A stretch of 64,000 nt of DNA from Escherichia coli (GTDB lineage: Bacteria; Pseudomonadota; Gammaproteobacteria; Enterobacterales; Enterobacteriaceae): the NCBI RefSeq assembly GCF_044324785.1, contig NZ_CP172127.1; one strand, written 5' to 3'. The notes under the pieces are model-generated. The model saw nothing but the letters and a program-made list of their open reading frames with translations, did not search any database and had not been told where the DNA came from. The translations under genes were made by a program, and so were the position numbers. Shown here piece after piece: positions 1 to 1,218 of this stretch. Positions within the stretch are counted from its first letter, which is position 1. Each line of letters begins with the position of its first letter.

Positions 1-1218
1 GCATGAACTGTCCTGGTTTGACGGGTTATAGCGGTCCCAGTTAAATTTCACCCGCACGCGGCCATGTTCATCACAGAAGATTTCCTCGCCTGCCGGTCCT
101 GTCACGACGGCGCTCTGCGGGCCATCCACCAGCGGTTTCAGCAACGGCTGTGGTCGCCATGTTCTGTCTGCCGGTATTACCGCAAAGTGGTTATTCAGTG
201 TGGTACCCGAACCACTGCGTCCCGGCACCGCCTGCGGCTGCTCGCCGTGCAGATCGCTCGCCACCACCTGCCATTCACGGTTCAGGTTCGCCTGCGGATG
301 CCCCGTCAGCGCAATTCGCCGTCCCGGCCATATCTCCGGCGAACGGCTTGTTCCGCGCGCCACTTCTGCGTTGTTTCGCCAGCCATCCATCTGCCAGCGG
401 GCAAAGTTCTGCCCGTGGGCACCCTTGAAACGTCCGGGGTAGTCATACACTTCATACTGTGTGCGCTGGTAATCCTGGTGCTGGCCTTCCTGATCAAAAC
501 GCCCTGCCCAGCCGGGTCGTTTAAAGGTGTAGTCTTTGGTCACCACGGAAGATGGGCGGATTTGTGCGCTGTAGCGGAACTGGCTGATGCAGAGGGTGCT
601 CACCTCGGTACGGGTGTTCGGATTCCAGGGGATCTCAAAGGACTCCGGCAGATAACGCACGGTGTCGCACAGGACCAGGCTCTGGTCGGTACTTTTTTGC
701 GCGTGCTCCTCATAAAAGAAGATGCCTTCCTCCGCCGCCATCCGGCACAGGAAATCGTAATCGGTCTCACCGTACTGGACACAAAATTCACGGGAAGGAT
801 GCGGCTCGCTGAACAGCGGACTCCACTCGGTCACCCCGTTTTCTTTCAGGATCGTCACGAGGATGCTTTCGATGTCCTCATTCTGGAAGATACGGAAGTT
901 CTGGCGCAGCCCTGTGCGCCACAGCGGTGGGCACACCTTCATGCTGTACAGCATCTGGTTTTTGTCGTTCTCCCCCAGTTCAAACCAGGTCACCACACCT
1001 TTCACCCGGCGCTGTACGTCATCGCCCTGCCATACCGTCAGGTAGGCCATTTTGTCCAGCACCTGCGCAAATTCAAGGGAAAGAAACTGCTGACTGACCA
1101 GAGAAAGGTCGAGGGAAAAAAGTGAAGAGAGTGACTGGTTCAGATGAAAGGAGACCACCGCAAACGCGTCCGGTGGCAGGCCGTCCACTTCCAGCGTGAA
1201 ACGTAATCCGGTTGACAT
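1..1218 (-). CDS. vgrG: T6SS spike protein VgrG, N-terminal 406 codons; gene runs off the left edge of the window
   Basis: Hand translation of the minus strand from ATG at 1218 gives MSTGLRFTLEVDGLPPDAFAVVSFHLNQ..., which I recognise as the conserved VgrG N-terminus. GGAGG lies 6 nt upstream. Not in the ORF track because there is no in-window stop; the track's + ORF 64..1125 is its antisense shadow. Confidence 0.85.
   Translation of the reverse strand, partial: MSTGLRFTLEVDGLPPDAFAVVSFHLNQSLSSLFSLDLSLVSQQFLSLEFAQVLDKMAYLTVWQGDDVQRRVKGVVTWFELGENDKNQMLYSMKVCPPLWRTGLRQNFRIFQNEDIESILVTILKENGVTEWSPLFSEPHPSREFCVQYGETDYDFLCRMAAEEGIFFYEEHAQKSTDQSLVLCDTVRYLPESFEIPWNPNTRTEVSTLCISQFRYSAQIRPSSVVTKDYTFKRPGWAGRFDQEGQHQDYQRTQYEVYDYPGRFKGAHGQNFARWQMDGWRNNAEVARGTSRSPEIWPGRRIALTGHPQANLNREWQVVASDLHGEQPQAVPGRSGSGTTLNNHFAVIPADRTWRPQPLLKPLVDGPQSAVVTGPAGEEIFCDEHGRVRVKFNWDRYNPSNQDSSC

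Follow-up and report, generated by a model that had tools for sequence, protein, structure and literature searches.

The 64,000-nucleotide stretch of Escherichia coli DNA analysed here (the window; contig NZ_CP172127.1 of assembly GCF_044324785.1) opens at its left edge inside a gene for VgrG, the spike protein of type VI secretion systems (T6SS). This gene very probably belongs to the E. coli 'rhsE-locus' vgrG-Rhs module, an island inserted between yncH and yddH that carries an orphan T6SS spike together with effectors. An earlier note, made from the window alone, had recognised a VgrG N-terminus on the minus strand and had predicted that an effector and immunity island lies to its left; the island indeed holds two Rhs genes, each followed by a small gene of the immunity type. 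The note's hope of undescribed toxin domains was disappointed, as the tips of the two Rhs proteins are predicted to be a divergent M91/Tox-HopH1 domain and a Tox-WTIP domain, both of which have been catalogued. The finding is correct but already known, since the locus is a textbook Rhs element with a linked vgrG, treated in the literature on the T6SS of E. coli and labelled by automatic annotation in thousands of genomes; apart from getting the annotation right, it has little importance.

Within the window, the minus-strand frame that starts with the ATG at 1218 remains open to position 1, giving 406 codons with no stop, and is preceded by the Shine-Dalgarno site that the earlier note had read upstream of it (Table 1). 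The encoded fragment matches TIGR03361 with E=2.7e-125 and 418.9 bits (cutoff 186; residues 7-406 on model positions 1-400 of 513), TIGR01646 with E=2.9e-88 and Pfam Phage_GPD, the gp27-like N-terminal domain, with E=4.2e-75, and the match to the VgrG model is far beyond chance. The left side of the island was read from contig JBNPQX010000001.1 (GCA_053151395.1), which is 100% identical to the window across 12,249 overlapping bases and which we take to be the source sequence. The stretch of this contig that spans the whole island, L016, has no mismatches to the window over 4,769 bases; a window position p corresponds to L016 position 4770 - p, and the part of the island left of the window occupies L016 4770-20107. 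Beyond the window edge, where the earlier note had considered that a stop or frameshift might show the gene to be a fragment, the vgrG frame runs on to a full product of 702 residues. This product covers model positions 1-512 of 513 in TIGR03361 (E=1e-188, 628.1 bits), and its C-terminal part, the gp5-like OB fold and beta-helix, which lies outside the window, carries the precomputed Pfam domains PF04717 (Phage_base_V) and PF22178 (Gp5_trimer_C). Compared with the VgrG encoded within the T6SS cluster of O157 Sakai, the orphan protein has 90% identity, and the two differ mainly towards the C-terminal end. The gene is intact and conserved.

Using the lineage-specific TssE of strain N3 as a probe, we located a T6SS cluster that lies some 1.5 Mb away from the island in this contig and in which hcp, tssB, C, E, F, G, J, K and L and the start of clpV were seen. 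The core cluster being this far away, the vgrG of the island is truly an orphan, as the earlier note had supposed. In the retrieved stretch of the cluster (L039), tagH, a T6SS accessory gene encoding an FHA domain, is split by an insertion sequence (IS) with a 370-residue DDE_Tnp_1 transposase (L039 13339-15968), and the spacing here is the same in L038, the near-identical sister genome. The Rhs gene within the cluster seems to continue into a copy of IS66 where the locus ends. Strain N3 has a homologous cluster at aspV with all of these genes present, as well as tssA, tssM and vasL; its tssA and its VasL-domain gene are flagged as frameshifted (L033 17963-24341), so that the T6SS of this nearest complete relative may be crippled too.

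The cluster carries a second vgrG-rhs module, which is 97.9% identical to that of the island from the Shine-Dalgarno site through to the end of the Rhs core and diverges only at the toxin tips; the alignment of the two begins at L016 3541 (window 1229), right at the Shine-Dalgarno site. The orphan and in-cluster VgrG proteins of this genome differ at 6 of 702 residues, and their genes at 28 nucleotides, all of which fall in the first 1200 nt. The resulting codon changes, 21 synonymous and 6 non-synonymous, argue for purifying selection on vgrG. From about nt 1135 of the 2109 in vgrG, the two modules are perfectly identical for about 3 kb, reaching into the Rhs core (L016 4686 to about 7650, compared with L039), a tract that includes window 1-84 and whose flanking parts differ by 1-5%. 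This pattern points to a recent gene conversion or to cross-talk between the repeats during assembly polishing. Several draft assemblies of close relatives (L011, L012 and L009, on short contigs) end inside vgrG, at about window 764-774, as is expected because the second vgrG copy is near-identical; assemblies made from short reads will therefore routinely lack islands of this kind or have them in pieces.

The first Rhs gene, Rhs1, follows vgrG closely. As assembled, neither Rhs gene of the island has an uninterrupted frame, Rhs1 being read as 167 plus 1262 residues and Rhs2 as at least three pieces with an IS66-family element. The break in Rhs1 is a deletion of one nucleotide that shortens a run of six G (G6) to five (G5) at about codon 158, in the conserved Rhs N-terminus (L016 about 6191-6213, about 1430 bases left of the window edge); when one G is restored, a single Rhs1 frame of 1420 codons results, and an intact allele of 1420 residues exists in GCA_002468915.1. 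The intact allele matches NF041261 ('RHS element core protein') with 2755.9 bits (cutoff 2000) over residues 1-1261, TIGR03696 is found at residues 1184-1261, and there are five YD-repeat stretches. Core-end motifs of the DPxGL type were read as QDPIGL and IDSLGL. Since the core model covers residues 1-1261 of 1420, a tip of 159 residues remains.

The Rhs1 tip is predicted to be a zinc metallopeptidase, a divergent zincin of the M91/NleD/HopH1-like kind. It carries the motif HEFAH (HExxH), and its homologues include Hafnia proteins that are 42-44% identical to it and that are named M91 zinc metallopeptidase by NCBI; a look-up of the Hafnia protein P0008 gave no record. Across an alignment of 20 tip sequences, H84, E85, H88, E114, E115, E123 and E132 are invariant, with a block QSPALGLGHExxHA; Pfam Peptidase_M91 (PF14891) is matched at E<=1e-3 by 10 of these sequences and at E<=0.1 by 19. 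The AlphaFold model of the tip is confident, with a predicted local distance difference test score (pLDDT) of 88.4 and a predicted template modelling score (pTM) of 0.86. In a Foldseek search of the PDB nearly all matches were zincins (light chains of the botulinum and tetanus neurotoxins, BoNT and TeNT, Wss1 and selecase), all of them weak. In the AlphaFold database (AFDB), 129 entries matched at E<=1e-3; most were the C-terminal ends of RHS proteins, from organisms such as Salmonella, Prevotella and Bacteroides, and one was the 'RhsD' of E. coli TA447 (99% identity). When the PDB was searched by sequence, the tip had no relative there. Tox-MPTase4 (PF15640), the family of Rhs-CT1, was considered as the identity of the tip and rejected, as there was no Pfam match to it even at E<=10. 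Domains of the Tox-HopH1 type (HopH1/NleD) on RHS toxins were catalogued by Zhang et al. 2012 (PMC3482391).

The 149-residue partner encoded after Rhs1 begins with MMKYLMVLLSLFSASVLG, in which a Sec-type signal peptide is recognised by inspection. The protein had no significant match in Pfam, and neither it nor the 114-residue partner of Rhs2 matched a model in NCBIfam. In Hafnia, too, the M91 tip has a signal-peptide protein (154 residues) encoded after it, which is 34% identical to the 149-residue protein (E=2e-23). The retention of the toxin-partner pair in Hafnia and the export of the partner suggest that the toxin is antibacterial and acts in the periplasm.

The tip of Rhs2 is of the Tox-WTIP type, a predicted pore-forming toxin that has been catalogued previously (PMC3482391); in the N3-type allele PF15654 is precomputed and the motif WWSIP can be read. 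In the strain studied here, IS66 removes the last 23 codons of the tip, including the WxSIP motif (the Wx[ST]IP of PF15654). The IS66 element is absent from N3 at the corresponding point of Rhs2, and the frame breaks of Rhs2 are common to N3. Rhs2 is certainly dead, as it is in N3; its partner gene is intact.

Drawing on the established biology of the T6SS and of Rhs proteins, we infer how the products of the island would act together. The Hcp tube made by the T6SS cluster (a cluster located at aspV in both N3 and O157 Sakai) would be capped by a VgrG trimer; the Rhs protein would be seated on the VgrG tip by its PAAR-like N-terminus, and the shell of YD repeats would enclose the toxin tip. 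Contraction of the sheath would inject the complex into a neighbouring bacterium, and the metallopeptidase would probably act in the periplasm of the target cell, because the immunity protein is exported; the immunity protein would shield sister cells. In this strain, such a weapon is half working at best.

Several observations weigh against reading the island as an orphan spike with effectors of this kind. In the stretch of the T6SS cluster that was retrieved, which stops short of its far half, tssA, tssM and vasL were not seen; exact-protein look-ups with TssB of Sakai, with the DotU of this genome and with the LprI-like and YafT-like proteins of N3 did not reach the contig. At the N-terminus of Rhs1, the Pfam PAAR_motif is only marginal (E=0.048 and 0.56, residues 2-29); DUF6531 is clear (E=2.4e-19), and such Rhs N-termini are treated as PAAR in the literature (PMC6730261). 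The Rhs1 tip itself matches PF14891 at E=0.055-0.1, which is below significance, and as it is linked to this family via intermediates only, we describe it as M91-like and not as a certified member. The tip is also without a close solved structure, the best PDB match by Foldseek having E=0.16. A promoter was not identified in the intergenic region upstream of vgrG, where promoter-like sites number 3, compared with 3.7 in shuffled sequences. As to the earlier note's prediction, part of what it had looked for in the leftward sequence came to light, namely the Rhs and immunity genes, whereas no DUF4123, Eag or other adaptor gene was found between vgrG and Rhs, the gap being only 66 nt, and both Rhs genes are disrupted as assembled.

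How the break in Rhs1 is explained determines what the island would be today. One reading, which we place just short of an even chance, is that the frameshift is real and was spread between the two modules by gene conversion, which would make pseudogenes of both Rhs genes in the island; what selection retains would then be a spare VgrG and, most importantly, the pair of immunity genes, which would give protection from toxin-bearing kin. The perfectly identical tract of about 3 kb spans the G run, and a single frameshift could therefore have been copied by gene conversion; the exact 167-residue frameshift product has been recorded in 106 blocks of public assemblies, many of them unrelated, and at several Rhs loci (for instance, beside an FtsX-family gene). 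Also consistent with decay are the certain loss of Rhs2, here and in N3, and a separate lesion in Rhs1, an independent insertion of four T in N3 and two other assemblies, so that decay of Rhs1 is common. Both immunity frames are intact, and the retention of orphan immunity genes has been described for E. coli (PMC6730261). However, the identical tract could also stem from cross-talk between the repeats during polishing, and the 1262-residue downstream frame carries no further damage, which suggests that any inactivation is very recent. If this reading holds, the locus would show how gene conversion with the in-cluster copy keeps such islands alike, while toxin genes decay and immunity genes persist.

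An active weapon is also quite possible, with the chances lying somewhat against it. The break in Rhs1 would then be a homopolymer error of the long-read assembly, and a full PAAR-Rhs-metallopeptidase of 1420 residues would be delivered by this VgrG. All other copies and lineages examined have G6; the two copies in the near-identical sister assembly read G4 and G5, and this assembly has 9 gap openings in 17 kb relative to JBNPQX010000001.1, which indicates that indel errors do happen at such sites. The clean frame that is obtained on restoring one G, the intact allele on record in another assembly and the otherwise undamaged state of the tip, the immunity gene and vgrG argue in the same direction. 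On the other hand, all four readings of the run from this lineage (two copies in each of two assemblies) are G5 or shorter, the truncated product recurs in the 106 blocks, the repaired 1420-residue protein was not on record in an exact look-up, and tagH is interrupted by an IS. The recurrence of the 167-residue product reflects a hotspot of mutation or else a sequencing error that keeps recurring, and we consider a real frameshift and a long-read assembly error to be about equally probable. The 106-block record, the lack of the repaired protein among recorded proteins and the identity over about 3 kb speak against dismissing the break as a plain assembly artefact.

It is unlikely that the metallopeptidase tip is aimed at proteins of a eukaryotic host and not at bacteria. 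Such a target would be in keeping with the membership of NleD in M91 and with the proposal for Tox-HopH1 of Salmonella, which is among the core T6SS effectors of that genus and is placed with the anti-eukaryotic effectors (PMC12994826). However, antibacterial toxins that act in the periplasm are typified by a dedicated downstream partner with a signal peptide, such as the one that accompanies the toxin here and in Hafnia, and a study of Salmonella Dublin lists its PAAR-RHS-Peptidase_M91 effector as prokaryote-targeting (PMC8867033). It is less likely still that the G6 run serves as a slippage-prone on/off switch, by which production of Rhs would be phase-variable, with vgrG and the immunity genes left on throughout; this idea arises because the same 167-residue product occurs in the 106 blocks, at several Rhs loci and in several strains, and in both vgrG-linked copies here. 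That the edge vgrG is a pseudogene fragment with nothing functional downstream is barely credible in view of its intact 702-residue frame, its full-length model match (with the identical contig accepted as the source) and the excess of synonymous changes relative to its paralogue.

The vgrG-rhsE island of enterohaemorrhagic E. coli (EHEC) EDL933 (vgrG2, z2257-z2261) has been described (PMC7216683), and it shares with the present island the site after yncH, which is also that of K-12, and the order of vgrG, Rhs, a small immunity gene and an ISAs1 (H-repeat) element. Unlike the EDL933 island, that of the present strain has two Rhs genes in tandem whose tips differ, and it also carries an inserted IS66 and a frameshift specific to the lineage. 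The T6SS-dependent PAAR-Rhs-CT effectors of E. coli have been reviewed (PMC6730261). Among these is Rhs-CT1 (Tox-MPTase4), which, in the summary given there of Ma et al. 2017, has T6SS-dependent antibacterial action and shares with Rhs1 a PAAR-like N-terminus, a C-terminal HExxH tip and a downstream immunity gene (Ma et al. 2017 in PMC6730261). Unlike that of Rhs-CT1, the tip of Rhs1 would fall in the M91/HopH1 branch of the zincins. The same architecture and toxin family as in Rhs1 are found in SED_RS06335 of the Salmonella Dublin SPI-19, a PAAR-RHS-Peptidase_M91 protein (PMC8867033). The structural relatives of the tip among Salmonella RHS proteins in AFDB have TM scores of 0.84-0.87 and a low sequence identity to it (34-36%); the Salmonella partner has 110 residues and one transmembrane helix, whereas the partner here has 149 residues and a signal peptide of the cleavable type. 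With NleD, the type III effector that is the founding member of Peptidase M91, the tip shares the HExxH zincin core, and intermediates tie it to PF14891; NleD is a stand-alone effector, in contrast to the tip studied here, which is part of an Rhs protein, has an immunity partner and lies below the Pfam threshold. NleD cleaves host JNK and p38. It has been reported to block apoptosis of mammalian cells (PMC3482391).

A vgrG beside yncH is present in 2924 of the 5426 complete E. coli genomes (about 54%; at least 80% of window 1-3000 covered). The tip and immunity module occurs in 1082 of them (about 20%), mostly as a variant of 80-90% identity at other loci, and this M91/HopH1-like tip with its exported immunity protein is a reasonable subject in which to seek a new periplasmic target of T6SS toxins.

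Table 1. Features of the vgrG-Rhs island and its flanks, in window coordinates or in those of L016.
Feature	Position	Strand	Basis or remark
vgrG 5' part (codons 1-406 of 702)	window 1..1218	-	open frame, TIGR03361, Phage_GPD
Shine-Dalgarno GGAGG, 5 nt 5' of vgrG ATG	window 1224..1228	-	read from sequence
yncH-vgrG intergenic region, 818 bp	window 1219..2036	.	37.7% GC, AT-rich
yncH (DUF5445), conserved chromosomal gene, right flank of island	window 2037..2249	-	open reading frame (ORF), N3 and K-12 annotation, exact-protein match
yncG (glutathione S-transferase family), conserved flank	window 2325..2942	-	ORF, N3 and K-12 annotation
vgrG complete, 702 residues	L016 3552-5660		intact frame
vgrG-Rhs1 gap, 66 nt from stop to start	after L016 5660		no adaptor gene
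Rhs1 piece 1, 167 residues	L016 5727-6230		as assembled
Rhs1 piece 2, 1262 residues	L016 6200-9988		as assembled
Rhs1 partner (immunity-type) ORF, 149 residues	L016 10001-10450		
Rhs2 pieces, 110, 607 and 666 residues	between L016 10450 and IS66		
IS66-family element, three ORFs	L016 14680 to about 17330		23 codons before end of Rhs2 tip; 23-codon tip remnant then follows
Rhs2 partner (immunity-type) ORF, 114 residues	L016 17435-17779		
ISAs1 transposase gene	L016 18201-19262		then yddH

The position of vgrG just beyond yncH, and at the site where K-12 has its rhsE remnant, agrees with what the earlier note had stated. In K-12 MG1655 the rhsE pseudogene stands directly after yncH; K-12 is collinear with the locus to window 1286, 68 bp upstream of the vgrG ATG, which is the K-12 deletion junction, and beyond this point it is joined onto the last 1.5 kb or so of an Rhs core. 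Unlike the present strain, K-12 has lost vgrG and about two thirds of Rhs. The GC content of the island is typical of Rhs elements, with 62-63% in the Rhs cores, 37% in the Rhs1 tip and 34% and 27% in the partner ORFs of 149 and 114 residues, respectively.

The window derives from a divergent E. coli lineage, since no complete RefSeq E. coli exceeds 97.5-98% identity over its larger stretches and none exceeds 97.5% over window 1-25000. The nearest, N3, is 98.0% identical over window 39001-62763, where the alignment ends, and typical strains are about 95% identical in the right third of the window; window 39001-64000 is covered to 80% or more in only 80 of the 5426 complete genomes. Over window 1-3000 the identity to N3 is 99.9% and it drops beyond about 3300, which suggests a recombination boundary inside ansP near this position.

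Elsewhere in the window, Rfam identifies the sok antitoxin RNA at 36554-36705 (+; 111.5 bits), which implies a hok/sok type I toxin-antitoxin locus, and the small RNA RydC at 37265-37328 (+; 92.5 bits). A very large gene for a ydbA-like autotransporter, or 'beta strand repeat-containing protein', occupies a highly variable region at about 57800-64000. Two small ORFs lie between ydcF and hrpA, at 41927-42421 (+) and 42406-42717 (+), the first of which is annotated in N3 as a member of the SMI1/KNR4 family. This family includes immunity proteins of polymorphic toxins, and the ORF may encode such a protein as an orphan, at a distance from any toxin gene.

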